A stretch of 64,000 nucleotides of DNA from Candidatus Aenigmatarchaeota archaeon (GTDB taxonomy: Archaea > Aenigmatarchaeota > Aenigmatarchaeia > Aenigmatarchaeales > Aenigmatarchaeaceae): contig JAFGAZ010000012.1 in NCBI GenBank assembly GCA_016933455.1, positions 1,625 to 65,624 of the forward strand, in the 5' to 3' direction. Below are positions 3,172 through 63,100 of this stretch, piece after piece (the stretch's first letter is position 1; each line of letters starts with the position of its first letter). The position numbers were made by a program, and so were the translations under genes. The notes beneath the pieces are model-generated. The model was not told where the DNA came from. It was given only the letters and a program-made list of their open reading frames with translations, and made no database searches.

Positions 3172-3450
3172 TTAGCTTTTGTAAAAAATTTTCTTGAAGT
3201 CGTTTAGCAGAAGAGATGTTTTTTTAAGCGATGTCAAGGCTTCTTCGCCTTTTTTTGTTCTTTTACATTCGTATCTATCTTGAGCAGGTTTCCTTTCTTC
3301 TAAAAGTTCTGAACCTATTAAAGAGTTGTAATATTTCAAAAAATTTACGTATGATGTGTTTGATTTGTGATATACACACGTTTTGGATTTCCAGTTTCCC
3401 GTATTTCTAAGAATATTTTCTACTATGTCGTTTCTGCTTCTTTTTGCCAT
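3172..3450 (-). CDS. small winged-helix DNA-binding protein (HTH_45-like)
   Basis: Start moved to ATG 3450 (MAKRSRNDIVENILR...). The pattern IVENIL..x..KT.VYHKSN.SY..F..Y...L....LLE resembles small archaeal wHTH proteins. AT-rich TATA-like sequence lies just upstream. Confidence 0.5.
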   Translation of the reverse strand: MAKRSRNDIVENILRNTGNWKSKTCVYHKSNTSYVNFLKYYNSLIGSELLEERKPAQDRYECKRTKKGEEALTSLKKTSLLLNDFKKIFYKS

Positions 3451-3484
3451 TATTATATTGATATAATAAACTTTAAACGTCTTT

Positions 3485-4954: not shown

Positions 4955-5047
4955 AATAGAATATTGGTATGCACTATATATTTGTATTGCTTGTGTAATG
5001 CGCGAATTGCTTTGCTTTTTTATTCTAAGAATTTCAAAATATAAACA

Positions 5048-6094: not shown

Positions 6095-6098
6095 AATT

Positions 6099-7229: not shown

Positions 7230-7235
7230 CAACAT

Positions 7236-8411
7236 TCAAACTATTTTGTTTTCAACTAAAATTCTTAGAACTTCCGCAACGCTCCATGCCTGTGATGTTG
7301 TTCCCCCTGGCTCATAAGGTGAATTTCCTGAAAATACTTCCGGTAATGACTTGTATGGGCTCTCAAGGCAGAACCTAACCAAAGGTGTTAGAACCTCTTT
7401 GATTTCTTTTTCTCTTCCAAGCTTTGCCAGTGCGTCGCAGTAGCCGCCCATAAGCCAGGGCCAAGCAGTACCCTGATGATATGCCTTGTCTTTTTCCTCT
7501 ATAGGAAGAGATGTGTCGTACGTTCCAATGTATCGGTGGTCCTTTGGAGAGAGTGTTCTAAGGCCTCCTGGCGTTAGAAGCTCTTCCTCTACTTTCTTTA
7601 GCACCTGCTTTTGCCTCATTTTGGAAAGAAGGTCGTCATTGACAGCAAATATCATGTTGGGTCGAACAGACCAGCCGTAAGGGTCGCCGTCAACAACGTC
7701 CATTAGGCATCTTTGGCTTTTGTTCCAGAACTTTTTGCTAAAAGAGGCCCTGATGTTTTCCGTAAGGTAGACATGGTTGTTGTCAAAATTAGAAAGGAAT
7801 TTCAATGCCTCGTACCAGAGAACGTTTATCTCCACCGCCTTGCCGTTCCTTGGTGTTATGGGCTCTGCTTTGCCGAAGCAGTCGGCGTCCATCCAGGTCG
7901 CCTGAGCTGGGCTAACCAAAAAGCCGTCGTCATCCATCCAGATGTTTTGCCTTTTGCCGCATCTCTTGTAGAAGGTCCCCTTTTTGTAAGAGTCTATAAC
8001 GCTTTTCATGGTCGGCAGCATCTTCTTGACGAATTCGGAATCGTTCGTGTATTCATGGTACTTTTTCATGGCGTGGACAAACCACAAAGAAGCGTCAACT
8101 GAATTGTACTCTGCGCATTCCTTTTGAATGATGTTGGGTATTATTCCGTTTTTCTGGAATTTTGCAAACCTTTCGAAAACCTGTTTTGCCTCTTTGAACT
8201 TTTTTCTAGTCAAAAGTATACCCGGCAGTGAGACAAACGAGTCCCTGCCGTACTCGTGCAAAAACCAGTCGCGGCTCGCAGCCCATATCTGCACAGAGCC
8301 GCCCACCTTTTTGACAAACAAGTCGGCAGCTTGATTGAACGTTTTCAATACTGCTTTATTGTCCCATTCGAACTTTCCTGTTTTAAGCACAGTTTCCTGG
8401 TTGGCTGACAT
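7236..8411 (-). CDS. amylo-alpha-1,6-glucosidase / glycogen debranching enzyme (GDE_C catalytic domain only)
   Basis: YHQGTAWPWLMGGY and SQAWSVAEVLR are typical of the (alpha/alpha)6 GDE C-terminal domain. At 391 aa it lacks the N-terminal domain of longer archaeal homologues. Confidence 0.8.
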   Translation of the reverse strand: MSANQETVLKTGKFEWDNKAVLKTFNQAADLFVKKVGGSVQIWAASRDWFLHEYGRDSFVSLPGILLTRKKFKEAKQVFERFAKFQKNGIIPNIIQKECAEYNSVDASLWFVHAMKKYHEYTNDSEFVKKMLPTMKSVIDSYKKGTFYKRCGKRQNIWMDDDGFLVSPAQATWMDADCFGKAEPITPRNGKAVEINVLWYEALKFLSNFDNNHVYLTENIRASFSKKFWNKSQRCLMDVVDGDPYGWSVRPNMIFAVNDDLLSKMRQKQVLKKVEEELLTPGGLRTLSPKDHRYIGTYDTSLPIEEKDKAYHQGTAWPWLMGGYCDALAKLGREKEIKEVLTPLVRFCLESPYKSLPEVFSGNSPYEPGGTTSQAWSVAEVLRILVENKIV

Positions 8412-8495
8412 GATTACAATATTTAGAATACTGAAATAAAACCTTTATCCAAAGCGTTTTAAGCCTTTTGGGATTCAATAATTTATAGTGATATT

Positions 8496-8891
8496 ATGAA
8501 AAAACAGATAAATCAAAATAGATTATTCATTCCCCTATATCTCAAGGAAAGGGTAGTCGAGACATCAAAGAAAAGCTATGAATTCGAAAAAAACCAGGTA
8601 GATACGAAAGAAAATAAGGGTTTGTATAATCTTGAGAAAAAAGAAGACTACATTTTCAAGCTCACGAACCATATAATCAGCCCTTCCAAAATTTCTGTTC
8701 CAATGAACGATGTACTTAAAATCCTCGATAATATAGAAAAACCACAAGAAAAAGTAAAAGACGAAATACAAAAATATTCAATTGTTCTAAGAATGAGCCC
8801 CTTTGATAAAAAGCAAACACCTGATAATGGATACCTTGGTGGTATTGATGTTATGACAGGTGAAAAAGCAACTGATTATAGTTTTGATTGA
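8496..8891 (+). CDS. hypothetical protein (131 aa)
   Basis: ATG ORF in an otherwise empty gap. Lys/Glu-rich, no motif recognised. Confidence 0.4.
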   Translation: MKKQINQNRLFIPLYLKERVVETSKKSYEFEKNQVDTKENKGLYNLEKKEDYIFKLTNHIISPSKISVPMNDVLKILDNIEKPQEKVKDEIQKYSIVLRMSPFDKKQTPDNGYLGGIDVMTGEKATDYSFD

Positions 8892-8939
8892 TTTTGTTGT
8901 AAAGAAAAAGTTTAATAGACGATTCAAGGATATATAATT

Positions 8940-9602
8940 ATGAAGACGCCCGTCTTGATAGTTAACCTAAAGCAGTACGACCAGTCTCTCGGCAGAAACT
9001 CAATAAAGTTTGCAGAGATAGCTAAGAAGATGTCAGACAAGCACAATGTTTCTGTTGTTATTGCTCCGCCAGCCCCGATGATTGATGATACTTCTAGCAT
9101 ATGTTTGACAATGTCTCAGCACATTGATCCCTACGAGCCTGGTGCTCACACGGGTTCGCTTCTGGCAAAGCATGTAAAAGAGCTAGGTTGCATAGGCACC
9201 ATAATTAATCATTCTGAAAAAAGAATTTCTTATGAAAATATTGAAAAGTGCGTCGAGCTTTGCAAAAAGCACAGGTTAATTTCCGTTGTTTGCGCCAAGG
9301 ACAACAAGGAAGCAGGGGAATTGGCTGCATTAAAACCTGATTTTATTGCAGTGGAGCCTCCCGAGCTTATCGGAGGGGACATATGCGTTACAACAAAGCC
9401 TGAGGTTATTGTCGAATCCGTAAAGGCAGTTAGTGATGTTTCCCCTCAAACAAAAGTCCTGTGCGGTGCGGGAGTTAAGCACAGGGACGATGTTGAAAAG
9501 GCAATCGAACTCGGATCCCAGGGAATACTTGTTGCATCAGGGGTTGTAAAGGCAGACGACATAGAAAATGCAATGGAAGACCTTGTGATGGGGATGCTAT
9601 GA
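8940..9602 (+). CDS. tpiA: triosephosphate isomerase, archaeal type
   Basis: IINHSEKR, AVEPPELIGG, CGAGV. 220 aa, typical of short archaeal TIMs. Confidence 0.9.
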   Translation: MKTPVLIVNLKQYDQSLGRNSIKFAEIAKKMSDKHNVSVVIAPPAPMIDDTSSICLTMSQHIDPYEPGAHTGSLLAKHVKELGCIGTIINHSEKRISYENIEKCVELCKKHRLISVVCAKDNKEAGELAALKPDFIAVEPPELIGGDICVTTKPEVIVESVKAVSDVSPQTKVLCGAGVKHRDDVEKAIELGSQGILVASGVVKADDIENAMEDLVMGML

Positions 9603-43124: not shown

Positions 43125-43943
43125 ATGTTCGAACTTTTGTTGTTCTTGATTGCCTTCATAGGCAGCCTTGCATGCGGCTTGTATGACCTTAAGACATCAA
43201 ACGTTCCTGATTCTGTTTGTCTTCTTATGATAGCATCGGGTTTTATCATTCATATAGTATACGGCTTTTCAACAGGCGACTTTGCCAATCTTGTAAACTC
43301 CTTATTGTTCGGGGGGCTTTTCCTCGGCTTTGGCCTTCTCATGTACTTTACCGGTCAGTGGGGAGGCGGGGACGGAGAGCTGCTAGTCACAATAGGAGTG
43401 CTTCTTCCAACAATGACTAGCGTAAGCACGATATTTCCCTTTTCCATAAGCTTTTTTGTAAACAGCTTTTTCATAGGGGCAATATATTCCATAATATACT
43501 CCCTGATACTTGTGTGCAGAACGCCCAAGATAAGCAAAAAGTTTGTTTCCAACATGAAAAGCAGCAAGGTGCTTTTTGCATGCGTTGTTGTTGCAGCCTT
43601 TTCAACTATATTTCTTTTCTTTTCGCAGCCGGCATTTTTTGCAATAACCATACTCTTGCTTGTGCTGATTGTTTTCCAAAGGTTTTCCAAGACAATAGAG
43701 GAGAGCTTCTATAGGAGAATACCCACAAAGAAGCTGCAGGTTGATGACATGCTAGGAGAGGACATACCAAAGCTTAGGTTATACAAGCGCTATATCAAGG
43801 GCCTTTCGCAAAAGCAGGTTGACAGAATAAGAAAGCACAAGAGATATGTGATAGTGCGCGACGGCATAAGATACGGTCTGGTCTTTCCCCTAAGCTTGCT
43901 CTTCACTTATTTCATCGGGGACTTTTTGCTCTTCTTTGTGTAG
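43125..43943 (+). CDS. A24-family prepilin/preflagellin aspartyl peptidase (PibD/FlaK/EppA-like)
   Basis: First catalytic Asp in GLYDLKTSNVPD, second in GQWGGGDGELL (GxGD). Polytopic membrane protein. Confidence 0.75.
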   Translation: MFELLLFLIAFIGSLACGLYDLKTSNVPDSVCLLMIASGFIIHIVYGFSTGDFANLVNSLLFGGLFLGFGLLMYFTGQWGGGDGELLVTIGVLLPTMTSVSTIFPFSISFFVNSFFIGAIYSIIYSLILVCRTPKISKKFVSNMKSSKVLFACVVVAAFSTIFLFFSQPAFFAITILLLVLIVFQRFSKTIEESFYRRIPTKKLQVDDMLGEDIPKLRLYKRYIKGLSQKQVDRIRKHKRYVIVRDGIRYGLVFPLSLLFTYFIGDFLLFFV

Positions 43944-47629: not shown

Positions 47630-48400
47630 TTAATCAGTGCCGAGAAATCTTTTTATTCTGCCCTTAAAGCTCGTGTCCTCTTTGATGCCTATTAGGTGTC
47701 CTGCCAGCCTTTTCATTTCCCTGCTTGCTGAAGACCTGGGTTTGTGCAAAACCAAAGGCGATCTTTTTGCAAGGCTTACCTGGACATTGTTGTCATGCGG
47801 TATGCTGGCTATCACTGGCAGCTCTGTTAGTATCTCAACTTCCTTTCTTGAAAGCTCGTGGCGTTTCTTGGATACCATGTTCATGACAACACCGACCGGC
47901 CTTTTGCCAAGACCCTTTATTATTTCCTTGCATTTTATGACATCCGTGACCGCAGGTATGTTGGGGTTGGTTACAAAGATTATCTCATCGCTTGCCTCTA
48001 TTGCTGATATTGCCTCGTTGCCAAGCCCTGGCGCTGAATCTAGAAGTATGATGTCTGCCTTTTTGTGCAGCTCCTTTATCACGTGCTTTAGCTTCTTTGA
48101 GTCCACGCCCTCTATTTCCCCAAGCCTTATTGACGCAGGTACTATTTTCATGCCGCTTGGATGCTCATACATGGCTTCCTTAAGCTCGGTTTCCCCCCTT
48201 AGCAGGTGGTTTAGTGTGACAGGGCAATAGTACATGCCCAACGACAGGCTAAGATGAGATGTCGTCAGGTTGCAGTCAACTACTGCAACGTTTTTGTTGA
48301 ACTTTTTTGCCAGAGCAGCGCCTAGGTTAGAGACGATTGTGGTTTTCCCCACACCACCTTTGCCTGATATTATGCCTATTTTTCTTTTTTTCTTGACCAT
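47630..48400 (-). CDS. minD: MinD/ParA-family P-loop ATPase (archaeal MinD-like)
   Basis: Deviant Walker A SGKGGVGKTT, Walker B ILLDSAPG. Start at ATG 48400 (MVKKKRKIGII). Confidence 0.85.
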   Translation of the reverse strand: MVKKKRKIGIISGKGGVGKTTIVSNLGAALAKKFNKNVAVVDCNLTTSHLSLSLGMYYCPVTLNHLLRGETELKEAMYEHPSGMKIVPASIRLGEIEGVDSKKLKHVIKELHKKADIILLDSAPGLGNEAISAIEASDEIIFVTNPNIPAVTDVIKCKEIIKGLGKRPVGVVMNMVSKKRHELSRKEVEILTELPVIASIPHDNNVQVSLAKRSPLVLHKPRSSASREMKRLAGHLIGIKEDTSFKGRIKRFLGTD

Positions 48401-48404
48401 GCAA

Positions 48405-49370
48405 TCACTTTGCACTCTTCGTGCTAAGGTTTAGTATCTTTTCCTCGTACTTTGTCCTCATTTCCTCGTAGCTGTGCCTTGATATTAGGCCTTCCCTGTA
48501 CTCTTCCTCAAGCAGGCCCTTGGCCTCTTCAAGGCTTCTTATCTCGTCGTCGACCTTGCTGTCTTGCTTTTCTCGCCTTATCAGCCTTTTTATCTTAAGG
48601 CCAGGTATGCTGCCTGGCGTTATATTGCTTTTTTTATTTCTTCCCAAAACAAAGAACCAAAGAAACATGGCTATAATTATAATTATCAAGGCCAGTATTA
48701 AAATCGTCTCGAATGAAATGCCCTTTGCTTGCGTTACTGGGCTTGTTTCTGCTATTGAAAGGTCGTATTCGGCCTTTTTGACTATAACTTCGACTTCCCT
48801 TATCTTTTCACCCGCCTCGTCGTAAAGCCTGCCGTACACATCGCTTGATGCAGCTTCAAGCAGCAAAGTTGCCTCGTCTATTTGTGCCCTTATCTCGCTT
48901 ACATCGCTGCCCCCTGCAGCTATACCATTTGCCTCGCTTTTTAGGCTTATTAGCTGGTCGCTAAAGTCCTGTATTTCCGATAGTAAGGAGTCTGTTCTTG
49001 ATGCGAATATCTCAACAGAAAAGTCTTCCCATGTAGTGACTTCGTCTGACACCGCTCTTAGTGAAAAGTCAAAGCTTCCGTTCTCCTCCTCGGCAGGAAC
49101 ATAAAGCTTGAATAGGAAAGCTGCTGTTTCTCCTGGCTGCACGCGCTTGGCTTCGTCTTGGGCCTCAAACCATGATGATTTTTCACCATCTATTAAAACC
49201 TGCACATTGTTTAGAGCAACATCTCCCGTGTTTTCCACGTCTATGCTAAGGTATCTTACCCAGCCCTTTTCGACCAGTATGTTTTCCTCAAAGCCTGTTA
49301 TCTCTATGCTTTGAGCAAAGGCTATGCTGGCAAAGAGAAGCATTATTATCAGTATTAGTATTTTTTTCAT
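48405..49370 (-). CDS. type I membrane protein: signal peptide, CARDB/NEW3-like Ig domain, helical stalk, TM, cytoplasmic SHOCT-like tail
   Basis: Start at ATG 49370 (MKKILILIIMLLFASIAFAQS). LSIDVENTGDVALNNVQVLIDG...VQPGETAAFLFKLYVP. TM ILILALIIIIIAMFLWFFVL. Tail EEEYREGLISRHSYEEMRTKYEEKIL. ATGA overlap with the upstream wHTH gene. Confidence 0.65.
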   Translation of the reverse strand: MKKILILIIMLLFASIAFAQSIEITGFEENILVEKGWVRYLSIDVENTGDVALNNVQVLIDGEKSSWFEAQDEAKRVQPGETAAFLFKLYVPAEEENGSFDFSLRAVSDEVTTWEDFSVEIFASRTDSLLSEIQDFSDQLISLKSEANGIAAGGSDVSEIRAQIDEATLLLEAASSDVYGRLYDEAGEKIREVEVIVKKAEYDLSIAETSPVTQAKGISFETILILALIIIIIAMFLWFFVLGRNKKSNITPGSIPGLKIKRLIRREKQDSKVDDEIRSLEEAKGLLEEEYREGLISRHSYEEMRTKYEEKILNLSTKSAK

Positions 49371-49579
49371 TTCGCCCACCACATGATCTTCTCCTTGGGG
49401 CCGTGGCTTGATTTTTCCACCTTGCTGCCAATAAGGCCCATTGACTTTAGCTTGTAGCAGTGAGAATTGGCCGTAGGCCATGTTATCTTAGAATGTTTTG
49501 CAATAAGGTAGGTGGACATGGGTTTTTTAGCTTTCTTTAGAACTTCTAGTATTTTCTTGTCTACCTCGGTTGTTATCAT
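49367..49579 (-). CDS. small winged-helix protein (70 aa)
   Basis: KKILEVLKKAKKPMSTYLIAKHSKITWPTANSHCYKLKSMGLI is an HTH plus wing pattern. Confidence 0.6.
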   Translation of the reverse strand: MITTEVDKKILEVLKKAKKPMSTYLIAKHSKITWPTANSHCYKLKSMGLIGSKVEKSSHGPKEKIMWWAK

Positions 49580-49593
49580 AATATATTAATATA

Positions 49594-51117
49594 TTAATAT
49601 ATATTTAAAAATTCTTCAGCAGACTGCTGCTCTTGTTCCTCGACTTCTTTGACGGCTGATGGCACGATTTCTCTTAGACCGTCTGCAAATACCTGGGCTA
49701 TGTCGTCGTAGCCGTACTCCTGCCAGGACTCTCCTATCTCCGCCAGGGTGTTTTCCACCATGTTCTCTTTTTTCTTGTCCCAAAGGCCCTGACTCTTTAG
49801 CTGCTCGACGTTGTTTTTCAGCTCATCTATGTAGGACTTTATGTCGGTCGTGTTCTCTGCCCTTGAAATCATGTTCAAAATCTCGAAAAAGTTCATCCTT
49901 GCATCCGACTTTAGCACGTTCTCGGATACCTTTGATATCTTGGAGCTTACCTCCTTTAGTTTCTCGAGCATGTTTCGCGATATCTCTGTTTGCAGCCTCA
50001 TGGTTGAGCCGACACCCTCGCCCTCTATCGACTTTAGCCTATCTTCCATTTCCCTGCCCTTTTGTTCTAATAGCGTCATGCCGCTTTCCAGTTCGTTTAT
50101 TATTGATGGCAAAGACTTTATGCTGAAAGATTTCTCTCCCTCCAGTTTCTTTAGTTCTTCCTCCACCTTCTTTAGCAGGCTTTCGTTTTTTTGCTTTAGT
50201 TCGTTGTAGGAGGATTTTGATATCTCGCCCTTTCTGTCCTGCTCTTCCAAAGTTGCCAGAAGCCTTAGAATGTGCTCCTTTTTCGTTCTCATGTTGTCTC
50301 TTCTGTTTATTATTTCCTCTTCGGGTATCTTGAGAACTTCCTGAACGTCTTTTAGCTGCTCTTCTATTTTTTCCCTGCTTGAAACTATGACATTGTTAAC
50401 GCCCTTCTTGAAGATGTCCATGTCGTCCTTGGAAACAAAGCTCCCTAGTTTTATGTTTATCTCGTCCACTGATTTGGTAATTTCCCTGCTCAGATCGTCT
50501 ACCTTTTCTAGCCTTATTTTGAACTGGGGAAAGTCCTTCATCCTATTCTCTGTTTCTATGTAGAATCTCTCTGTTTTTGCAGACAACCTGTCAACATCCC
50601 TTTTCGTCTGCTCCATTTTGGCAGCCGCATCGTCCATCTTCTTTAGGGTCTCTGTCAGGTTCTCGATGCTTCGTATGTTTTCGGTGATGTTTTCCATGTT
50701 CTCTATTTTTCTTACAAGCTCCTTGTTGCCAAGTTCCATCTTTTCTATCTTCATTTCAAGGCTCTCTATTTCGGTTTTTCTTTTTTCCATGTCCTTTCTT
50801 ATCCGCATGGGCTCGATGTCTGTTACAGAATCAGAAAGCATCTTGACCTTTGTTTCCATCTCCTTTATCATGGTCTCTCTTTGGAATATCATGGACCTAA
50901 GCTCGCCTATCTTTTCTGACAGGTCCCGTATTCTCTCGTCTGCTTGGAACTTTACATCTTTAAGAGCAATAAACTCGGCCCCGAGCTTTTCTATCCTCAT
51001 CATTATTTCCTTGAGGCTAACTTCCTGCTCGAACTTGTATTTTTTCTCCTCTTCCTTGGGCCTTTCTTTTATTATGCCCTTTTCCTTGAGTATCTCTACC
51101 ACTGTTTTGGTTTCCAT
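49594..51117 (-). CDS. 507-aa coiled-coil protein (Glu/Lys-rich), function unknown
   Basis: ATG 51117 (the track's 51120 is TTG), 4 nt after the giant gene's stop. Heptad-rich throughout. Internal SHOCT-like motif DRKGEISKSSYNELKQKNESLL. Confidence 0.7.
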   Translation of the reverse strand: METKTVVEILKEKGIIKERPKEEEKKYKFEQEVSLKEIMMRIEKLGAEFIALKDVKFQADERIRDLSEKIGELRSMIFQRETMIKEMETKVKMLSDSVTDIEPMRIRKDMEKRKTEIESLEMKIEKMELGNKELVRKIENMENITENIRSIENLTETLKKMDDAAAKMEQTKRDVDRLSAKTERFYIETENRMKDFPQFKIRLEKVDDLSREITKSVDEINIKLGSFVSKDDMDIFKKGVNNVIVSSREKIEEQLKDVQEVLKIPEEEIINRRDNMRTKKEHILRLLATLEEQDRKGEISKSSYNELKQKNESLLKKVEEELKKLEGEKSFSIKSLPSIINELESGMTLLEQKGREMEDRLKSIEGEGVGSTMRLQTEISRNMLEKLKEVSSKISKVSENVLKSDARMNFFEILNMISRAENTTDIKSYIDELKNNVEQLKSQGLWDKKKENMVENTLAEIGESWQEYGYDDIAQVFADGLREIVPSAVKEVEEQEQQSAEEFLNIY

Positions 51118-51121
51118 CAAA

Positions 51122-54100
51122 TCACTTCTCTTCCATGCTCTTGAGCCTGGTGTTTATAGAATCAATATACGTCTCGGCCATCCTCATCTGTCCGGTCTTG
51201 ACTTTTTCACCGGCCAGCTTGAGCTCAAGCTCCATGTCATAAGTATCTATTCCCTTGCTCTTTAATTTTTCTACTTTTTCTGCCAGCTCCTTTATCTTGT
51301 CAGCATAATCCTCGTACTTTTGCAGCTCCTCGTCTGTTAGCCTGAACGTGTCGTGTAGCAATGGCCTAAAGGTTATGAACCATGGCTTGCCGTCGTTGTA
51401 CGATGGGTTTTGAACCATGCCTGTTCCAATGTCTAGCTTGGGTATGGACTCTGCATAGTCCCAGCCGTACTTTGTCTTTATCCTGTTTACGTCTCCCTCG
51501 TACTTTGTTCTGAGCTGCATTTCAGTTGCAATAACAGCCCTTATGGCTCCCTTGAAATCCAAAAGCACCTGCGAAATCATCACAAGACCGATTCCCCACT
51601 TTCTGAATTCCCTGCAAGCTCTCTCTATTGCCTGGTATCCTCCGCCTTCAAGGGAAGCTCCTGATTTCTTGGAGTACTTTGGAAGTAGCCTGTGCACCTC
51701 GTCAAATACTACCATTAGTTTCATCTTCCTTGACTCTGGCCAGGACACCTTGAACATGTAGTCGACAGTCTTTCTGATAAAGTAATCCAGTTGGTCTGCT
51801 GTTAGCTTGTTTAACACGAAAACGGTCATCTCTCCTGGCTTTACATACTTTTCTATCTCAAGCTTGAGGAAGGGATCTTTTATCGGGACAATCGAACCCT
51901 TGAAAGACCTTGCCTCTTCTTCCTTCATGCCGAATTTCTTGTAGTTGTTAATCATTTCCTTGTCATTGTTGGATCTGATAAAGCCTGTCCACTGGGCTGT
52001 GGGGTCGAAGACTATGACTGGAATGTTCTTCTTTAGGGCCTCTTCAGCCATGACCATGGCAGCCACTGTCTTTCCAGAGCCCGTGCCGCCTGCTATTATG
52101 GTGTGGGTTGTCAATTTCTCTTCTTCAATGTAGGCATTTGTATTGGTCTCGGCTATCTTTCCAAGCAAAAGCCCCTTCTTGGGCAGCTTGTTTAGCTTGA
52201 CAGGCCTTACATACCTGCCCCTGACCCTTTTCTGAGAGTGCCATTTCTCGAATAGTTTCCAACCCAAAAGGAAGCTGGGTATTGCTACGAAAAGAACTAT
52301 GTATGTCATCCAGTTGGTGAACAGGTCTATTAGGAATGTTATTATCCATGGCTGGTCGACTACGCTAAATGAAGTCACAGACGTGGCTATCTTGTCGTCG
52401 TACGATGCCACGGCTTCTAGCACGTAAAGACCCAATGCGGTGTCCTCTGGTATTCTCATTCTCCTCACAAAAGTGGTGGACGTTTCAACTGCTATTGATT
52501 CCTCATCCACTGTTAATATTTCCTGGGTTTCAGTAGATTTTATGGTGTAGTTGTTTATTATATCTACTCTTTTAGTCATTCCCAAATTGTATATTGTCAC
52601 CTGGTATTCTAAAATTCCTCCCGGCCTTACTTCTTTTGTTATGGCGTCAACCTTGAGGTCTAGGAGCTTTTCTCTTTCATATTCCACCCTGAGTATAACG
52701 TCTATTGTCTCGACAACTCCGTCGTATTCAACTTTAATCTTGCCGTTGTAAACGCCCGGAATAGTTGTCGGCATTGTTGTGAACTTTATCTTGGCATTGA
52801 CTGTCTCTCCTGCTTGTATGTCTAATGTGTCGTCCTCGAACATTGTGTATGGCCATATGGCGCCGTCAACGGAGAGCTTGACTTGTTTTGCCACTGACCT
52901 CTTGTTTGTTAGGCCTATGCTTACTAATTGGTATTCGCCCGGATAGAGTCTGACTTCGATTAATCTTGTTGTAAGGGTTATGTCTGTTTGTATTGCATCT
53001 TTTTCTTCGACCGTTGTTGTTGGAGCTGACCCTCCTCCTGGTGATCCTCCTGTCGGTCCTGTTGGTGTTGTTCCGCAGTCTGCGGGGCAGAAGGCGCTAG
53101 TTTCTCCATACAGCGATTCGCAAGCACCGTCCCCGCATATGAACTCTGCCACAGCATATGCTCCTGATATTTCCGACATGCTGGTTGTCAGGGTGTTGTT
53201 GAATATGTCAAGAGTCGAGCTAAGCCTTGTCCAGCACGAGTTGTCCGTTGCCGGAGTCCTGTTTGAGAACAGCCAGTTCTCGCACCTGTATATGCCAAGT
53301 GATGTCTCAGAGGAGTAGCCTGTTCCCGTGTAGTTCATGATTAGTGTTGCGTCAGTGTAGTTGAGTATTGTCTGGAAGTACAATGCCTTTGCAACTCTCG
53401 AGTTGGCCCCTCCGATAAGGAACGTTGACAGCGGGTCTATCAGGGTGGCGTTGTCTATATCGGAGGCTATGCTAACGTTGGAAAGGTTCACTGCGTTGTT
53501 TAGAGTGCCAATGCCCACATCATAGTATCTCATGTGCGCTATGTTGCTGTAGTATCCTGAAGCGTTCGATTCAAAGCTGTCAAGCAGGCTTCCTGTTGTG
53601 TTGAACATGTCAAATGATACGTCCACCGGGTAGCTTTCCGCATCTACTGATGTTCCGTTAAACCATGCCGGAACGTATACCTCGAACCATCCTGACTCGT
53701 TGCCCCAGTTGTTCGACGAATCATTCGCAAACACTGTAAAGTAATAGTCGCCGACCTCTGTTAGATTTGATAAAGTATAATCCCAAGTATCTCCTCCTGC
53801 AGGCGACATTGAGTAGTTTGCTACAGTTCCGTTTATTGCTGGGTATGTTACCTGCGCTATCACAGTACTAACTCCGCCTGCGTCAGTTACATTGGCCTCT
53901 ATTGTAACGTCGCTAAGAGGCAAAATAGAGTTGGCCTCTACTGTTATCTCGGGAGGCGTTAGGTCAGGTCCTCCTGTTGCAACTATTCCAAACCATTCTG
54001 CTATTATTCTTATTAGAGATATTATTCTGTCTGCAAAGGCGTTTACGTTCAAAGCTTCTGTTATGTTGACAAGCAGTGTTCTGTATCTGCTAACAGAGTC

Positions 54101-57100
54101 TGTTACTGACATTACAACGCTAACGATCCTTTCGTAAACGCGGCCTGATATGCTGACATCTGTAAGTACATTTATTTGCTCGGTTATCATCATCAAAATA
54201 GACTGCGTTCTTGCTGCAAATTCGTTTAGATAAATGCTGTCAGCTATGTTTCTTGTGAATGACATTAGCCTGTTTGCTGCATCGCTAATTCCAAGAGCTT
54301 GGATCGTATCTCTTATGTAGACAAAGTTCCTTGTGACACTGTCGCCTATGTTGAATGTCTCTGAAATCCTAATGAATAGTGACTGCAACCTGCTTACTAT
54401 TGCGTTCGTATTGAGTGTTTCAGAGACGCTTCTTGTGATACTAGATAGCCTGCTTGCATAATCTGAAGTTGTTATTTGTTGGATTACGTTTATCAGGGTC
54501 GCAAGTGTCCTGTCCACTGTGCTCTGGAAACCAAAGCTGTCTGTTGCTGACCTTATTGCAGAAATTATCCTGCCTGTAATGCTGCTTATATCAAGACTTT
54601 GATTTATCTGCAGTGTTATTGCCTGGATTCTTGAAGCGATTTCATTTATGCTAATAGATTGCTGCAATGTTCTTGAGAACATCATCAGTCTCTGTGAAGC
54701 GTTGTTTATTATAAGCGAGTCTATAATCTCTCTGATGTACACAAAGCCCCTTGAAACACCCGAGGATATGCCAAAGCTTTCTGACATTACCCTTGTCAGA
54801 GCCTGCAGTCTTGCTGCAAGGTTCTGCGCTGTTATGCTCTGTGATATCTGCCTGATTATTGCTTGCAGCCTTGATGCGTAATCAGACAAACCTATTGGAT
54901 TAGTTACACTTCTTACGGCTATCGATATCCTGCTGGACAGCTCGTTTATGTTGAACGAATCTGCAAGTATCCTGGTCAAAGCCTGTAGTCTTGAGACTCC
55001 TTCATTTATGCCAAAGTAGCCAGTTGCTGTTCTGTAAAAGTCAGATAATCTGCTTGCATTGTTTTGCAGACCAAATGACTCTAATATCTCAAGTAGCATG
55101 GCGGTTGTTCTTTCCACAAGCGATTCTATGCCAAGACTGTCTGAAACAGTCCTCATTATTGCCTGCAATCTGCTTGAAACGTTTTCAATTGATATTGTCT
55201 GGCTTATCTGTATTGTTATGTCCTGCAACCTATCAGATAGAACGTTCAAGTTGAGCTGCTGCGTTATAGTCCTTAGGTAGCTGTAAATCTGGTTGCTTGC
55301 GTCGCTTATGTTTATTGTTTCTATCACGTCCCTAAAGTATGAAAAGCCCCTAAATATGTTCGATTCAAAAGTCAGGGTGTCATATACACCTCTTAGCATT
55401 GTTGTTAGCCTCTGCGAAATCTCGTTCACAGACAATTGCTGTGTTATCGATCTTATCACGCTTGCAAATCTTGTGGAATAGTTCTCAATTCCTATCGAAT
55501 CTGAGACGCTTCTTATTATGGTAAATATCCTATTGGAAACTTCGTTTATGTCAAAGGAATCCGTTATCATTCTTGATATCAATTGCAGCCTTGATGCGCT
55601 GTCGCTTATGCCAAAGTAGCCAGTTGCTGTTCTGTAGAAATCAGCAAGCCTGCTTGCGCTGTCGCTCATGCCAAAGCTTTCTGTTATCTGCAAAAGCATT
55701 GCAGTGAGCCTGTCAACTGCGCTGTCTATGCCAAAGAAGTCCGTTACTGACCTCATTATGATTGCAAATCTTTCAGAGATGTTGTTGACGTTTATTGTCT
55801 GTGCAAAGTACCTTGTTATGTCTTGTATTCTGTCTGCTACGTTGTTTATGCCAAGCTGTTCTGACATCATCCTAAAGTAGTTATACAACTGGCCAGTCGC
55901 ATCGCTTATGCTGAACGTGTCGCTTATGCTTCTGAAGTAGACAAAGCCTCTGAATATTCCAGAGTTAAATGATATCGTGTCGAATATATTTCTGAATATG
56001 GATGCGAATCTTTCAGAGACATTGCTCACATTTATCGAGTCGGATAATATCCTAAGTATGCTTGCCATTCTTTCCGATGCTGTTTGCATTGTTATGCTAT
56101 CTGTTGCCGACCTGAAAGCGCTCATCAGTCTTGATGCCGATTCATTGAATTGGAGAATGTTTCCTAATGTTCTAAGTATCGCTTGGAGTCTTGATGCAAG
56201 GTTGCTTATGTTTAGAGTCTCTGTTGCGTTTCTTGTGATCAATGCCAGTCTTGATGACGCATTCTCTATACTAAAGAAGTCTGATATCTGCCTAAACATC
56301 AAAGCCAGCTCTTGCGAAACATTGCTTACGGAAAGCTGCTGGGTTATTGCCCTGAATATTGAAGAGAGTCTGGAGACGCTTTCGTTTAGTGTTATCTGCA
56401 GAGCCACTTCTACTCTGTTGTATCCCATCTTGTCTGCTATTGTCTGCAAATTGAAAGTTATCGTGTCGAATATAATTCTAAGGTATGCGTACATGTTGTT
56501 TGCAGCATCCGTTATGCCGAGGCTTTCAAGCGCCATCCTAATGTATGTTGGTACAAGGCCCGAGCTTGAGGATGCTGAGAAGTATGATGTCACTGATCTA
56601 ATTCCTGTTGCTATTCTTGTTGCATAGTCGTTTAGTGACAGTGCCTGGCTTATCATCTGCGTTATTGACTGCAGCCTGCCAGCCAGATTGTTTAACGCTA
56701 TATTCTGCGTTGCCTGCCTTAGCATTGTTGCAAGCCTTCCTGATGCATTTTCGATGCTGAAAGTTTCGAATACGTCTCTTAGGTATGCAAAGCCTCTTTC
56801 CGTTGCCTGGCCTAGGCCAAACGAATCCGTTACTGTTCTTATTATTTCCTGCAGCCTGCTGCTTGCGGCATTTATTGCGATGCTGTCTGCTATGCTTCTG
56901 AAGATGCTTGCCAGTCTTTCCGAAGCCTCTGATATACCGAAGCTGTCTGTCACTATCCTGAATATAGAGGTTATCCTTTGTGCGGCGTTGTTTATTCCCA
57001 AGCTTTCTGTCAACAGTCTTTGTATTTCAACTAACCTGTTTGCAGAGTTTTGCAATCCTATGGTTTCTGATAGAAGTCTTAACATTGTTGATAACCGTTG

Positions 57101-60100
57101 GGAAATGTTTTCTATTTGGAAAGATTCTGTCACTGACCTTACGAATGAGAAGCCCCTTGAAACCGCATCCGAAAGTTGCAATGTATCGGTTATGCTTCTA
57201 AATATAGATGATAATCTTTCGGCAACGTTTCCTAGGTTTATATCCTGTCCTATAATCCTAAGCATTGCTGTTAGCCTATCTGCCGAGTCGCTTATGCCAA
57301 AGCTTTGCACAACGCTTCTTAGGGTTGCTGTTAATCTGTCAGCTATACTATCAATTCCAAAACTATCTGTCGCTGTTCTATATGCTGACAAAATCCTGTT
57401 GGATATGTTTTCAATCGAAAGCGTTTCTGTTATTTCTGTTATCAAATATTGCAATCTTCCTGCAAAGTTTTCCAAGCTTAATGTATCAGTAACAATTCTT
57501 GAGAAGGTCACCAGCCTGTTGGCATAATTTTCTATACCAAAGGAATCTGCTGTTATTCTCAGGAATGAAAAGCCCCTTTCTATTGCCGAGTCGAATGAAA
57601 GTATTTCATAAACGTTTCTAATAATTGAGGCTATTCTTTCTGCTATGTTGTTTAATGATAACGAGTCTGTAATTTCTCTAACAAAGCTTCCAAGTCTTGA
57701 CATTGAAAATGTCGTTGTGAAATAGTCAGTTATGGTCCTGAAGATGTCACTTAGCCTTCCAGACGTTTCTGTTAATGTGAAACCTTGCAGCGGATTCCTG
57801 TTGTATTCCCCTAGCCTTCCTGTCTCATCGTCTAAGGAAAATATCTGTGAAGAGTTCAGGAAGTGCTCTCCTATGTAGAGGGGTATCTGCAATGACGAAG
57901 ATGTATAGTTTTCTCCTTCCGAAGCTCTAGCTGTGTAGTAGTAGTAACTATTGTCCAAAGTAGTTGTGTCGTTCCAAAGGTTATAGTCTGAGCAGTTATT
58001 GCCTGCTCTACATAATATTTCTTCTGCAGATAATACGCGTGGATATATTTTCACTTCATCTATTGTTCCATTGAAGAATGAATCACCATTCGTTAGTCTT
58101 CTCATAGAACCTATAGTTATACTTCTATCATAGCTTCCCATAGCATTGGATGATACAAATTCGTTTTCTAAACCATTTATATAAAATTTTATTGAACCTG
58201 TATTGTTATCAACAGATATTGCTACATGTGTCCATTCATTATTAGTAATTGTATAGCTACTGTCATATAGATCTCCATTACCATCCATCCATACTAATTC
58301 ATTATCTAATCCGCCGCCTTGATTATTTAATCCAAAATCCCATGCCTCTGTTCCTGTGTATCCTAGACTTCCTTTGCTTACTATTCCTTGCCAGTCATCG
58401 CCTTCATCTTTCCAATTTATCCAAGCTTCAATTGTAATTTTATCTTCTAATGTTAATGATTCTGAATTAGAAATTTCAATATAATCGCCTAATCCATCAA
58501 ATTCTAAGCAGTTCCCATAAGTACAGCCGGATGACCATATTGGTACTCCATGTGTGGAGTTTTTCAAAGTTCCTGTGTTGTTGTTGCCAGTATCATCAAA
58601 TGTGTAATTGTTCTCACCTTCGTCAAAGTGCCATATTGCTGAGACTGTTCCGTTTCTGTAAAAGTCATAGTAGACATCTGAATCGCCTGTGTTCTCTTCT
58701 GACATAGAGAAGTTATTTTCTATGGAGTTGTCTGACCTGGTCTCGTATAGTTCTTTTATTTCGCCTGTTGATAATGAGCGGTTCCACAATCTCACCTCGT
58801 CCATAGTTCCTGTGAAATTTTCCGAATATGCGATATTTGCCCTGCCCAATTTTATTTCCTTTAAGCTGTTGGAAAAGTCACCTTCTCCCGATATGTCGAA
58901 TGAGTTCTCAAAATCCCCGTCCATGAAAATCGAAACATTGTCTCCGAAATAAAAGACTGAGACAGAATGGTGCCAAATGCCGTCATTATAAGAACCAACG
59001 GTGCTTCCGGACTCGCCAGTGCTAACGCCGTCGCTTAATTCAACTCCTACGTTTCCGCCTACTGATAAATATGTGTGCCATCCCTGGCTCCAGGACTCGG
59101 AACCCTTCGAGATGAACCTTTCTTTTCTTCCAGATGATGTAGTTTTGAACCACCATTCAACTGCAAAGTCAGATGAACCGAGCGTGTTCAGGTTGGAATA
59201 GTTGTATATTTCCACAAAGTCAGCAATGCCATCGTATTCCAATGCTTTGCCTAGTTTACCATTAGTCCATGAAGGGCACGCTTCACCTCCACAAACACCT
59301 GTTTGATTTTTCAAGTATCCTGTATTGTTATTTCCTGATTTATCATATGTGATATTACGAATACCTTCATCAAACTTCCAGTATCCGACAAGTCCTGAAG
59401 TATTTACCTCGGCAGTGTTGTTGCTAAGAGTAATGTTTGGCTTTGCCTTGCTAATTAGCATCCATGAAGTGCTTGTCGAGGACGAATAGTTCTCTGATGT
59501 GGAGTAAACGCAGGTATAGTTCCAAAGGCCTGCGGGCAAGACAATTGTCTCATCGATAGGTGTTGTTCCCGTATCGACCTGGCTACCGTTTCTATAAAGT
59601 GTTAGAGTTGCTGAACTATCGCCTGTTACCAAGCTGCATTCTGCTACATCCGTCAGTCCATAGTCTGTGTTGTTGTTGGTAAGCGAGATTGAAACAGATG
59701 ATGTTGCCTTTCCTATATTGATAAAGTACGACTTGGAAGCCGAAGAATAGTTTGTATTTCCAGATGTGTTGTAGACATACCAGTGTGTCTCGTTCGCAAA
59801 TGTCATGATGTCAGACTGTGGATTGCTTGAGCCCACTGAGGTGTTGTAGTATCTGTAAAGCGTGAATGTGGGGACGTTTCCAAATAATCCTGTAAAGTAA
59901 CCTGTTGCATTAGACGCCTGGCCGTATGTATAGCTCTTGTTGCCTTCTGTTCCGTTTATGGTCAGGTTCATGTAGCTTTCTGTCGAAGAGTTCTGGTTTA
60001 TCGTTACAGTGTCAGTAACTCCTGTTGCATTAGCAGTCCAGTTAGCGCCTCCTGTAGCATTGAACCTGTAAGCATATGATCCGACTCCTAGGTATATCTG

Positions 60101-63100
60101 CTCCTGGTAGGTTTCGGTGTCGTCTACCATGGAAGAGTCCCTCCAAAGCTGGTATGTAACGTCGCTGTCTCCGCTGTTGGATTCGGTTCCTGTTACTGTT
60201 GACTGGTAGGGGTATGTTTGCGTTGTTCCTCCTGATATGGACAAGTCCATTGTCGCCTTGCTGACGCTCAAGGGAAGCAGTATTGAAGACTTTGTATAGT
60301 TCTGGGTCGGTGGCATGAAAGCCTCGTAATAGTATGATCCGGCTCCCAAAATCGTTGCGTCATATTCTGTAGAGTTCTTGGCTCCCCTAAGGACTGCTAT
60401 TTCTTCGTCTGTTAATGTCCTGTTATAGACTCGGAATTCGTCAACCATACCGTCGAAATATTCGTTTGAGAAGCATGCCCAGTATGTGTTTCCAACATAC
60501 CAGTAATTGGTATTCGAATCTGCAACAGTACCAAAATCTGACCTGCTGTTGCTTCCAACAAGACCGTTTTCGTCGTATAACTGTATATCGAACACTCCGT
60601 CGTAAGCATCTGTCGAGCTTTCTTGTTTTATTCTAAACACTGCAAAGTACCACTTGTTTTCCCATGTTATGCTGCTTATGCTCTGACCCTTGCCTCCCGA
60701 CTGGTCATAACATGTTCCATATACGCTGTCTACTCCTATAGAATAGCCCCATCTCTTGTAGAAAAGCCAGCTCTGTGAATTCAATTCAGATACATCTGGT
60801 TTGAACCATGCCGTCATGGTGAGATTGTTACCGTTCACAAGAGGCTCTAGACTGTCGCTTCTTACATACTCCTTTTTATCCAATTCCAAGGCCTTTCCGA
60901 ACTTTCCTTGGGTCGCGTTGGGGTCGTTGTCTAGTTGAAGCATGTCTATGTTTGTAGTGAATGGTGTCGTGTCAGCTGCTTCCAATGACCATATTATCTT
61001 ATCTACTTTTTCTGTGTGGAGATCGTCTAGTCTTATCCAATCAAGATTTATGTGCTGGTAGTATCTTGAGAGGTCCGAACGGTTAAAGTCCCATTGTATG
61101 TAATCGATTGTGGAAAGGTCCAAAGCGCCTGGAGCTTCGTCTGTTGGGCTTGAGAGGTCTAATGCATAAGCCTTCCAGTTGGCATACTGGCAGCCCAAGT
61201 CCCAATAGGCCCAATCACCTGAAGTGTCGTATGCATAAAGTCTAAGGTAATCTGTTTCTTCGCAAGGAACACAGTGTGACATCATGAAATGTAGGTAAGA
61301 ATTTGAAGACCAGTCCCAGTTTCCTGTTGGGTTATATCTGAAATAATAATCCGTGTTAGTGCTCAAATCGTCCCCATAAACATAGAACCTTACGTAATAG
61401 TCCCCTTCCCTGTTGGAATCCACTATTGATATTGAAGACGACCCTCCAGTATTGTTTTTTGACCAATCTGTTATTGACTCGCAGTTTGTTATTGTTGTAT
61501 TGCTGCCTCCGTTTGAATTGTCCTTTCCTCCATATCCGTTCATGTAAGCCATATAGAGCCATTTATTCTCCCAATTATCCGAGGAAAAGTCAATGTCCCA
61601 GTAGCGGTAGTTGTCGTCAGAGTCGTATACGTATACTCTTGCTTGATTAAAGTCTGTGCTAGATCTATTATTTCTGATCCAGAATGTCTGCTCAAAGTTG
61701 TTATTCCAATTCCACGTTCCTGAGGGATCGTAAGATATATTGTATGTGTTGCTTGCCGAAGGTGATGAAACCGTGTCTTTCAAAGAGTATGTTCCGTCCT
61801 TCTTTTCAGTATAATCCAGTGAAAGGCTTGTTCCTGTAAAGTCTGATGTTGATTCCATCGAGCTCGTGGTTGTCGGTGTTGGATAAAGCCTTGCATCGGA
61901 GTTTGATTCGCTTGCGTCATGAACAATTGAGCCTTCTATTTCGTCAAAAGACCAGTAGAGTATGTAATCATCCAGAGTGTTCGTTGTGTTATTTACTCTG
62001 AACATGTAGGCTCCGTTGATATCATTTGCATTGTTTTCGGACACGCTAAAGTTCGTCTGCGTTCCGTATGTTACCGATGATTGGTATATTTCCTTTATTT
62101 CATCTGATGAAAGTGTTCTGTTCCATACCCTAACCTCATCTATGGTGCCATTCATTATTCTTACTGCATCGTTTCCCTTTCCTATTATAACGCTATTCGA
62201 ATCGTTTCTCAAAACTCCTGTAACGGTAAATAAGAAGCTATTTACCAATGTTCCATTTACATATATTTTTCCGGTCCCGTTAGGTAGATAAGTTCCAACG
62301 ACATGATACCAAGCATTTGTCTGTATGTCTATATCCCCGCTGTTGTCGCAGTCCCAATCCGTGTCATTTGCTACACAGAATTCTATACCGTCAACTCCCG
62401 TATGGAAAACTATTTCATACGCATTTCCGTATTGGACTTTTCCTATTATCGGATAAACTTCTCCTCCACTAAACTCATTTAACTTGGCCCAACCTTCTAC
62501 GGTTAATTCGTTCATACTGCCTAGAGAATTTGAATCCTGGATTTCTACATAATCCCCTTCACCGTCAAACTCCAAACCTTGACCGAATCTTCCCTCTGTC
62601 CATGTCGGCACACCGTGCGTCGAGTTCTGCAAAGTTCCGTCATTATCCCAACCACTTGCGTCATATGTCGTGTTACCGATACCCTCGTCTAACTTCCAGT
62701 AGCCTACAAGACCGGAAGTGTTGACTTCTGCTGTATTGTTGCTCAACGTGATGTTCGGCTTTGCCTTGCTAATTAGCATCCAGGATGTGCTTGTAGAGGA
62801 CGAGTAGTTCTCTGATGTTGAATAAGCGCAAGTATAGTTCCAAAGTCCTGCAGGGAGTACTGTTGTTTCGTCTATTGGTGATGTTCCTGTGTTAGTTATC
62901 GTCTGATTTCTATACAATGTCAATGTGGCTGAGCTATCTCCTGTTACAAGCGAACATTCTGCTATGTTTGTCAAGCCGTAATCGGTATTGTTATTGGTTA
63001 ATGCTATTGAGACTGACGAAGAACCCTTGTTGACCAAAGCATAATACGTCAGACCTGTAGAGTTGTCTGAATAATTCTCGTTTCCTGTTGCATTTACCTT

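Follow-up and report, generated by a model that had tools for sequence, protein, structure and literature searches.

A widespread, undescribed 20-residue repeat in a giant surface protein of an aenigmatarchaeal genome and in fibre-like phage proteins

We analysed 64,000 nucleotides (nt) of contig JAFGAZ010000012.1 from a Candidatus Aenigmatarchaeota archaeon (assembly GCA_016933455.1, positions 1,625 to 65,624 of the forward strand), and this whole stretch is referred to as the window. An array of about 61-64 tandem units of 20 residues is encoded at 53984..57832 on the minus strand of the window, and it is one domain of a giant protein in which laminin-G-type domains precede the array and a transmembrane (TM) segment and an ATPase domain follow it. 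A preliminary description of the array, made from the window, gave neither its strand nor its protein context, nor the family that it shares with phages. As a stalk or fibre-shaft repeat in a giant surface protein the array belongs to a known functional class; the repeat type itself is undescribed, widespread, and common to archaeal giants and phage fibres. Our favoured explanation, held with moderate confidence, is that the array forms a rigid, probably oligomeric, coiled-coil-like extracellular stalk with a 7+7+6 residue spacing in a giant type-I DPANN surface protein whose N-terminus is outside the cell, and that this stalk displays the laminin-G-type domains.

Results

The array keeps a strict 20-residue phase

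Residues of the giant protein are numbered from the first listed start of its open reading frame (ORF), with residue 1 at nt 63814, and the frame runs on upstream of this start; all features of the protein described below lie on the minus strand. The array covers residues 1995-3277. In an autocorrelation of amino-acid identity over residues 2015-3274, peaks occur solely at multiples of 20, with values of 0.22-0.28 at lags 20 to 200 (z = 7-11) against a background of 0.075±0.019 at lags that are not multiples of 20. The score is z = 9.5 at lag 20 and reaches its maximum, z = 10.7, at lag 200. Identity at lag 40 is no higher than at lag 20 or 60, so there is no 40-residue period. Parsing with a hidden Markov model (HMM) built from the array units recognised 61 units, of which 20 form a block A in perfect phase (56558..57757, residues 2020-2419) and 37 form a block B, also in perfect phase (54152..56371, residues 2482-3221). 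The two blocks are separated by a phase-shift region of 62 residues (56372..56557, residues 2420-2481), which consists of two degenerate in-phase units and one 22-residue variant unit, Y-N-R-V...S-V-S. The irregular tail of the array (53984..54151, residues 3222-3277) contains a 21-residue variant unit, G-R-V-Y-E-R-I-V, and the last two units. The preliminary description had counted about 64 strictly phased repeats with two irregular spots; the count and the phase are borne out, and both spots match its coordinates approximately.

Variant units of the RGF or RNF type start at residues 2080, 2220, 2340, 2622, 2822, 3022 and 3162, with spacings of 7, 6, about 14, 10, 10 and 7 units. As had been proposed, they delimit super-repeats, and block B contains three of these with 10 units and 600 nt each (55352-55951, 54752-55351 and 54152-54751). 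Identity within block B is 39% at the 10-unit lag, compared with about 26% at other lags, and super-repeats 1 and 2 share 47.5% of amino acids and 57% of nucleotides. The longest exact repeat at the 600-nt offset is 31 nt long and is precisely the one reported before (55006-55036 versus 55606-55636). The mean unit-to-unit identity is only 28% at the amino-acid level and 43% at the nucleotide level.

The unit consensus reads R1-[LIV]2-x-[ST]4-[FLIV]5-[LFIV]6-R7-[ST]8-[LIAV]9-[ST]10-[DQE]11-[ST]12-[LIF]13-[TSGN]14-[LIF]15-[STN]16-[DN]17-x-[VA]19-x, and family-wide variants are [LIFV] at position 13, D at position 17 and [TS] at position 20. The array has a peculiar composition, with Cys at 0%, Pro at 0.2%, Lys and Trp at 0.1% each, Arg at 8.9%, Ser at 14.0%, Thr at 8.3% and Ile at 12.6%. 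It carries 1.5 N-x-S/T sequons per 100 residues, compared with 3.8 per 100 in the flanking ectodomain. These counts agree with the earlier remark that the array has no Cys, almost no Pro and few sequons relative to its flanks.

A phase-shifting variant unit of 21-22 residues, Y-[EN]-[RK]-[VI]-[VE]-x5-[ILV]-T-x-S-V-x-R, occurs in the window protein at residues 2462-2481 and 3225-3242. It is kept at several sites in a distant family member, P0001, even though P0001 is just 25% identical to the window protein, and there it seems to mark every +2 phase jump. This variant may be a dedicated punctuation or hinge element. Two plus-strand ORFs lie antisense to the array (55977-56627 and 56688-57527; 216 and 279 residues) and are most likely by-products of the repetitive codon pattern rather than genes.

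The repeat defines a large family without a name

Using a profile of 18 three-unit blocks from the window (alignment A1), we searched 1.84 billion cluster representatives (50% identity) exhaustively. The search yielded 1,703 proteins at E ≤ 1e-3, 726 at E ≤ 1e-10 and 118 at E ≤ 1e-30, whereas a word-indexed search with the whole array returned just four proteins, each bearing 20-residue repeats of its own. In nearly all of the best 150 family members the matches form long runs of constant phase modulo 20, and family-wide, consecutive recognised units lie exactly 20, 40 or 60 residues apart in 83% of cases, the commonest exceptions being 21 and 22. A unit-profile search, as the preliminary description had proposed, has thus found a family, and all of its 726 clusters at E ≤ 1e-10 are unnamed. 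The source names of members are all 'hypothetical protein' or 'DUF87 domain-containing protein', and in PHROGs the bacterial and phage members fall solely into the 'unknown function' families phrog_12240 and phrog_23524.

The earlier statement that the array matches no known repeat family also holds: the window array has no Pfam or NCBIfam match at E ≤ 0.1, and PDB sequence searches with the repeat gave nothing significant. No Pfam model covers the repeats in the 83 family members that were scanned, and a newer precomputed Pfam annotation lists none on the repeats. The only PDB profile matches on the repeat part were weak ones, to designed helical repeat proteins and helical bundles. Searches of the literature for the repeat, AF_1625 and giant DPANN proteins returned no description of the repeat or of a HerA-like fusion.

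Several known families were considered and rejected. PF27237, which is listed for P0001, is the C-terminal domain AF_1625_C and not the repeat. A leucine-rich repeat does not apply, as the 4,230-residue protein has no such model at E ≤ 0.1 and the consensus lacks the LxxLxLxxN core. The choline-binding 20-residue repeat (CW_binding_1, PF01473) gave no match, Trp is rare in the array (0.1%), and the aromatic residues do not show the conservation pattern of that repeat. Pentapeptide, TPR, HEAT/ARM and Sel1 repeats are likewise without Pfam matches on the window protein, which has no 40-residue super-period; one homologue has a sub-threshold Arm_4 match (19 bits versus a cutoff of 27). A trimeric autotransporter adhesin stalk was dismissed as well, as there are no YadA-type Pfam matches and the anchor is a single TM helix in an archaeon. 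It is also worth mentioning a distant match, P0004 (1,043 residues, no signal peptide), in which a CxxCxxCC zinc/iron-chelating domain is joined to about 35 Arg-rich units of 20-21 residues ('FVENLSxLxDVFxRRxxYxRR'). This protein may represent a cytoplasmic branch of the repeat, or its pattern may have arisen by convergence.

The array is one domain of a giant membrane-anchored protein

The giant ORF lies at 51122..64000, with its stop codon at 51122-51124, and has 4,230 residues from the first listed start to the stop. As the frame, 12.9 kilobases (kb) in all, is still open where the window ends at 64000, the N-terminus is missing and the full protein has more than 4,290 residues. Four Laminin_G_3 (LamG) domains are followed by the array, a beta-sandwich region, the TM segment and the ATPase domain. 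The LamG domains, which are ConA-like lectin domains, were all found by Pfam N-terminal of the array (residues 417-1933), within an N-terminal ectodomain (57833..64000) that also contains threonine-rich beta modules and is dense in N-x-S/T sequons (3.9 per 100 residues). NCBIfam adds just a partial LamG-like TafC match on the giant protein. The post-array ectodomain (52340..53983) comprises beta-sandwich modules, a Cys-containing segment and a Pro/Thr/Gly linker, with a weak NPCBM_assoc-like beta-sandwich match in Pfam at residues 3642-3697.

A single hydrophobic segment (52256..52339, residues 3826-3853), followed by a K/R-rich stretch, forms the TM segment. All 114 of the 114 sequons are N-terminal of it and none is found in the 377 residues C-terminal of it, which indicates that the protein is oriented N-out and C-in with a cytoplasmic ATPase. 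This ATPase domain (51320..52177) is of the HerA/FtsK P-loop type: its Pfam DUF87 match (residues 3884-4050) scores 38.4 bits versus a cutoff of 23.2, the Walker A motif GGTGSGKT is present, and the nearest solved proteins are HerA, with PDB HerA chains found at E = 2e-5. The protein ends in a K/E-rich tail (51125..51319) that reads as helical by its residue pattern. The module of ectodomain, TM segment and ATPase occurs in 14 database proteins (P0007 and P0155-P0167) at 39-72% identity, with about 700-1,100 residues called. As judged from this common C-terminal module, the fusion of a HerA-like ATPase to a giant extracellular protein is real, and several of the 14 proteins are probably truncated gene calls of similar giants. 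When the ATPase domain was used for a pattern scan of GTDB genomes, no relative emerged.

The N-terminal ectodomain also contains an internal duplication of 125 residues (residues 265-389 and 1371-1495; nt 62648-63022 and 59330-59704, minus strand) with about 86-88% amino-acid identity. The duplicated module, 'TNNNTDYGLT...SKAKPNITLSNNTAEVNTSGLVGYWK', runs into a LamG domain, and the duplication is far younger than those within the array.

Orthologues keep unit length and phase

An orthologue from an independent assembly, the partial NCBI protein P0007, aligns to residues 2761-4051 of the window protein. Its post-array part is 72.5% identical to the window protein, and the alignment over the last 517 residues of the array (26 units), at 34% identity, is free of gaps. 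The RGF units in this stretch, three in all, and the odd 21-residue unit are placed as in the window array, and the irregular tail aligns gap-free at 25-40% identity per unit. A second orthologue, at the syntenic locus L033, has the same downstream genes and is 60% identical over its C-terminal 956 residues; its array, of about 100 units, is quite different in sequence from that of the window. The collinearity of P0007 together with the divergence of the L033 array indicates that unit length and phase are tightly held, side chains much less so, and that copy number shifts over longer evolutionary distances. These findings suggest that side chains are under weaker selection than unit length, phase and count.

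An assembly collapse or expansion, which the preliminary description had named as a way in which its account could fail, is very unlikely because the units are so diverged from one another, and the collinearity of P0007 also speaks against it.

The L033 locus, on a JGI contig, illustrates how such genes may be called. Its giant ORF (51-9290) encodes at least 3,079 residues and runs off the contig start; it is annotated merely from an internal ATG as a 969-residue protein, with spurious small antisense genes over the array. The number of such giant repeat genes is probably underestimated in public gene calls.

The family comprises archaeal surface proteins and proteins in phage fibre position

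Two classes can be distinguished among the top 150 members. About 25 of them form an archaeal class of low guanine-plus-cytosine content, with 1,100-3,300 residues, a signal peptide, a C-terminal TM segment and 20-77 units. The named members of this class come from metagenome-assembled genomes (MAGs) of Bathyarchaeia and Pacearchaeota, and P0005, a large member, is annotated as from a Bathyarchaeia archaeon. About 110 of the top 150 belong to a second class of 470-1,400 residues without signal peptide and without TM segment, in which an N-terminal domain of 250-400 residues is followed by 10-25 units that reach almost to the C-terminus. Members of the second class look like phage proteins and lie in phage genomes: P0044 is encoded just upstream of the large terminase and portal genes, and P0034 belongs to a compact phage structural module in which it comes after terminase, capsid and a LamG protein. 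One member has a podophage fibre-tail adaptor domain, and Laminin_G_3 is present in 18 of the 66 scanned members. This recurrent partnership of the array with LamG, in phage fibres as in archaeal giants, suggests that the array acts as the shaft for a binding domain. The spacer or stalk role proposed earlier therefore fits, both with the order of LamG ectodomain, array, beta-sandwich and TM segment in the window protein and with the tail-fibre gene position in phages.

A viral protein on the IMG/VR contig IMGVR_UViG_3300003267_000193 (L035, 6001-8277) shares the N-terminal domain of P0044 at 44% identity. In place of the R-x5-R repeat it carries another repeat of about 20-21 residues, of the type 'GSLSxTQAAETLSAAGAVA', to which the unit HMM is blind. 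The occurrence of one N-terminal domain with different repeats suggests that the shafts are exchangeable modules. In tblastn searches of P0044 and P0003 against GenBank phages (INPHARED) the repeats remained unmatched, and no cultured annotated phage in that set carries the repeat; a search of the window array against IMG/VR found nothing.

Each unit is probably one amphipathic helix and a short break

Two AlphaFold2 runs were made on in-phase family alignments, one with 34 rows over 320 residues and one with 69 rows over 140 residues. In both, every unit was predicted as one helix of 16-18 residues, and the breaks fell at unit positions 13-15. Their confidence is low, with a predicted local distance difference test (pLDDT) of 38.6 and 46.6 and a predicted TM-score (pTM) of 0.18 and 0.19, and there is no defined tertiary packing. 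A Foldseek search of the 140-residue model against the PDB gave no match and is uninformative at such pLDDT.

Sequence statistics over 1,710 family windows point in the same direction. The main power of the hydrophobicity spectrum is at a period of 3.33 (20/6), with further power at 5.0, and for the segment between positions 18 and 13 the hydrophobic moment reaches 1.36 at 100 degrees but only about 0.5-0.6 at 170-180 degrees. Conserved pairs of oppositely charged residues have an i,i+4 spacing (D17 to R1, and R7 to D/E11). Positions 16-17 favour the N-cap residues S/T/D/N, and position 14 favours G/N/S/T, with G/N as C-cap. Mean-field direct coupling analysis (DCA) was applied to the same windows, with z scores taken over a column-shuffle null that ignores phylogeny. 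The i+3/i+4 pairs 3-6, 9-13, 7-11, 1-5, 3-7, 8-12, 2-6 and 18-2 reach z = 3-8.5. Across the break only the flanking residues couple (11-17, 12-18, 13-19, 9-19 and 8-20), and pairs expected for full antiparallel hairpin packing remain at background, z about 1. Couplings at +20 and +40 were discarded, as they reflect concerted evolution of neighbouring units and not contacts. We also rejected a canonical heptad coiled coil: hydrophobic power is at 3.33 and 5.0, the period is 20 and not 7 or 21, and breaks are predicted every 20 residues.

We therefore consider one helix per unit to be probable. The unit would be a single amphipathic helix of about 17 residues, which begins roughly at position 15-17 and extends to position 12 of the following unit; after it comes a break of 2-3 residues at [LIF]13-[G/S/T/N]14, as the predicted models and the residue pattern both suggest. 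The earlier proposal of an amphipathic helix plus short turn per unit agrees with the AlphaFold runs, the hydrophobic moment, the i+3/i+4 covariation and the i,i+4 charge pairs. Of that reading, the helix with its turn and the spacer or stalk role stand; its three-dimensional arrangement does not gain support from models with pLDDT 39-47 and pTM 0.18-0.19, and we saw no sign that helices of one chain pack on each other, as they would have to in a monomeric solenoid.

Chromosome and neighbouring genes

The window also encodes MCM, both RFC subunits, GatB/E, glycogen synthase, DUF1512 and a prepilin peptidase, which indicates a cellular archaeal chromosome, and its MCM is 73-89% identical to those of Candidatus Aenigmatarchaeota (DPANN) MAGs. 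Directly downstream of the giant gene, on the minus strand, a 508-residue K/E-rich, coiled-coil-like protein is encoded (49594..51120), syntenic with and 41% identical to the product of the gene after the giant ORF in L033. A gene for a 358-residue protein comes next, and then one for a ParA/MinD-type ATPase (47630..48415, minus strand); L033 and L034 have the ATPase gene downstream of the giant gene too, and the order of the genes is kept in both loci. This conserved trio, made up of an approximately 510-residue K/E-rich protein, a protein of about 330-360 residues without Pfam match and the ParA/MinD ATPase, is found at 47630-51120 in the window, at 9290-12608 in L033 and at 5991-9250 in L034. 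At the locus of P0001 (L001, 17165-19353) a ParA-type gene and T2SSE/T2SSF pilus-machinery genes (a type-IV-pilus-like ATPase and platform) follow. The genes downstream in the window and those after P0001 showed no homology, the ParA-type neighbour being the only common element. A prepilin peptidase (Peptidase_A24) is encoded at 43125-43943 of the window.

Discussion

A segmented rod as the favoured explanation

The hydrophobic positions 19, 2, 6, 9, 13 and 15/16 of the unit are spaced 3-4-3-4-(2-3)-(3-4), that is, as two heptads and a hexad. At 20/6 = 3.33 residues per turn, a continuous coiled coil would be too strongly overwound, and each unit must therefore contain one break in the helix. 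We propose that several chains, most likely three, would associate in parallel via the hydrophobic stripe, and that the product would be a straight, segmented, coiled-coil-like rod of about 150-190 nm for 63 units if the chain runs forward; the length would be about 60 nm if the helices stack as hairpins instead. Such a rod may hold the glycosylated, lectin-like LamG domains far from the small archaeal cell, where they could reach the surface of a partner cell, and in phages the repeat would serve as the shaft of fibre proteins. An oligomeric, forward-running rod fits with the failure of single-chain AlphaFold, the lack of intrachain helix-helix couplings, the phage-fibre context and the HerA-type C-terminus. 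HerA-family ATPases act as hexamers, and phage fibres are trimers.

Several observations weigh against this explanation. With pLDDT at 39-47 the helices remain a prediction, and a composition rich in Ser, Thr, Ile and Val suits beta structure too. The i+2 couplings are the strongest on average in the DCA, although the largest of them are dominated by two pairs of the RGFxY subtype. The break motif fits the published beta-layer consensus only in part, with T at beta3 and K at e missing, and a G-containing link of 2-3 residues followed by an N-cap is also the classic connection of an alpha-alpha hairpin.

Alternative explanations

The last of these points belongs to a monomeric alpha-helical zigzag or solenoid, in which 17-residue helices would fold back via the F-G-I-x-D link to give a single-chain rod of about 60 nm. 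The helix-break pattern in both AlphaFold runs is as expected for it, G14, a hydrophobic residue at 15 and an N-cap at 16-17 are typical of short helix-helix connections, and the across-break couplings with i+j near 28-30 (11-17, 12-18, 9-19 and 8-20) resemble the start of a hairpin ladder; the weak profile matches to designed helical repeat proteins may be added. However, no coupling is seen farther along the hairpin, where 5-3', 2-6' and 6-2' stay at z about 1, and the two-helix periodicity of 40 residues is absent. AlphaFold is normally confident on alpha-solenoids, yet pTM was 0.18-0.19 in both runs, and a single hydrophobic arc of about 120 degrees per helix would be unfit for a flat sheet of equivalent helices. 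We regard the zigzag as unlikely. We give still less credence to a beta-rich fibre, in which units would fold as beta-hairpins or as single coils of a beta-solenoid or triple beta-helix, an arrangement known from many phage shafts. Abundant Ser, Thr and Ile with scarce Lys (14.0%, 8.3%, 12.6% and 0.1%), the strict alternation of polar and non-polar consensus positions from 8 to 20, a mean coupling that is strongest at i+2 and higher at even than at odd separations, and the phage fibre context are all in its favour. On the other hand, the hydrophobic moment is only half as large at beta periodicity as at helical periodicity, the conserved Asp residues at 11 and 17 would sit on the 'hydrophobic' face of the strand, the i+4 couplings (R7-D11) are significant, and AlphaFold, which usually recognises beta-solenoids, gave helices in both runs.

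A role on lipids can also be envisaged, with Gly-punctuated, class-A-like amphipathic helices lying on a membrane or carrying lipids between the lipid-dependent DPANN cell and its host as apolipoproteins do. On a helical wheel D11 and D17 would be in the middle of the polar face and R1 near the polar/apolar boundary, helices that take shape on a partner surface typically receive low confidence from AlphaFold, and DPANN archaea are generally without lipid synthesis. Nevertheless, the repeat is common in phage fibre-position proteins and is found in P0005 from Bathyarchaeia, and a lipid carrier is unexpected in either; the strict unit length and count between orthologues argue for a geometric role, and no gene neighbour is linked to lipids. 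This makes the lipid role very unlikely. Finally, repeat arrays are prone to misassembly and this array diverges twice as fast as its flanks, as an artefact or a non-functional, drifting low-complexity filler might do. Such an origin is hardly credible when units share 43% of nucleotides with no exact repeat beyond 31 nt at the 600-nt offset, the independent P0007 is collinear over 26 units with 0 gaps, the frame stays open for 12.9 kb, and 726 clusters at E ≤ 1e-10 keep consensus and phase.

Comparison with known fibres and stalks

The segmented rod favoured above has a close parallel in alpha/beta coiled coils with beta-layers, described for Tcar0761, OMP100 and the Streptococcus prophage tail-fibre hyaluronidase 2C3F (Hartmann et al. 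2016, eLife, PMC4786415). According to that work, 3.33 is the lower periodicity limit for a continuous coiled coil, and a six-residue insertion in a heptad frame breaks a parallel trimer locally into a three-residue beta-layer; the catalogued cases are all homotrimers, many of them phage fibres and others prokaryotic surface proteins (PMC4786415). The present repeat resembles them in having a hexad in a heptad frame (7+7+6 = 20) with the predicted break within that element, a likeness of sequence pattern alone, and in opening the break with a hydrophobic and then a small residue, followed by an acidic residue and a new helix. It differs in the break itself, which is [LIF]-[TSGN]-[LIF]-[STN]-D-x as opposed to the published [aliphatic]-A-T-K-[polar]-[DE]. 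Positions 13-18, [LIF]-[TSGN]-[LIF]-[STN]-D-[ASV], fit beta1 and beta2, whereas the T of beta3 and the K of e do not fit and the acid is at f, not g. The repeat also has a near-invariant Arg at 1 and 7, and no strict 20-residue period over at least 60 units is described for beta-layer fibres in PMC4786415. At the level of pattern the repeat would work like a beta-layer fibre, and we do not file it as a member.

Among archaeal surface proteins, we take Staphylothermus tetrabrachion and Sulfolobus SlaB to be comparable stalks with a C-terminal TM anchor. In both, the coiled coil of the stalk has continuous heptads or hendecads and directly adjoins the TM segment. The giant protein presumably shares with them a long helical rod between distal domains and a C-terminal anchor in an N-glycosylated archaeal protein; unlike in them, its rod would be segmented every 20 residues, a beta-sandwich precedes the TM segment, and the chain continues into an ATPase. 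Phage tail-fibre shafts of the Phage_fiber type are triple beta-spirals or triple beta-helices. Proteins of the second class are like those with Phage_fiber and Phage_fiber_2 shafts in that a repeat shaft, often with LamG, follows an N-terminal domain and is swapped behind a shared N-terminus. They differ from them in having no Pfam phage-fibre match and in a repeat that is predicted to be helical, not beta. Exchangeable apolipoproteins have 11/22-residue amphipathic helix repeats. Tandem helices of about 20 residues with a breaker and acids in the middle of the polar face are the points of likeness, while the present repeat differs by a Gly/Ser/Asn and not a Pro breaker, by Arg for Lys, and by its extracellular prokaryotic or phage context; no sequence similarity to apolipoproteins was detected in Pfam and PDB searches. 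Giant proteins and LamG domains are discussed for nanohaloarchaea (PMC10266531). In general features, the window protein is like such giant LamG surface proteins in its DPANN lineage, its more than 4,000 residues, its several LamG domains and a presumed role in cell-cell contact.

Implications

A bolder reading, which is possible but doubtful at present, is that the 20-residue unit represents an undescribed and widespread fibre fold, in which two helix heptads alternate with a six-residue non-helical layer 10-100 times. It would be common to phage shafts and archaeal adhesins and beyond the reach of single-chain predictors, and the archaeal fibre would be continuous, via one membrane pass, with a HerA-type motor, forming a tether based on an ATPase ring.

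The repeat, which is unnamed, occurs in at least 726 clusters at E ≤ 1e-10; Pfam and NCBIfam have no model of it, none of its relatives has a solved structure, and AlphaFold does not model it with confidence. Its definition would annotate many 'hypothetical' phage fibre and archaeal surface proteins. If the 7+7+6 reading is true, the array would represent a very long, naturally occurring coiled coil with regularly spaced breaks, from which protein design and the study of fibre mechanics could profit. From its domain content and gene context, the giant protein is a candidate long-reach adhesin that would be coupled to an ATPase and clustered with a coiled-coil protein and a ParA/MinD ATPase, and it may be a target for studies of the contact between symbiotic DPANN archaea and their hosts.

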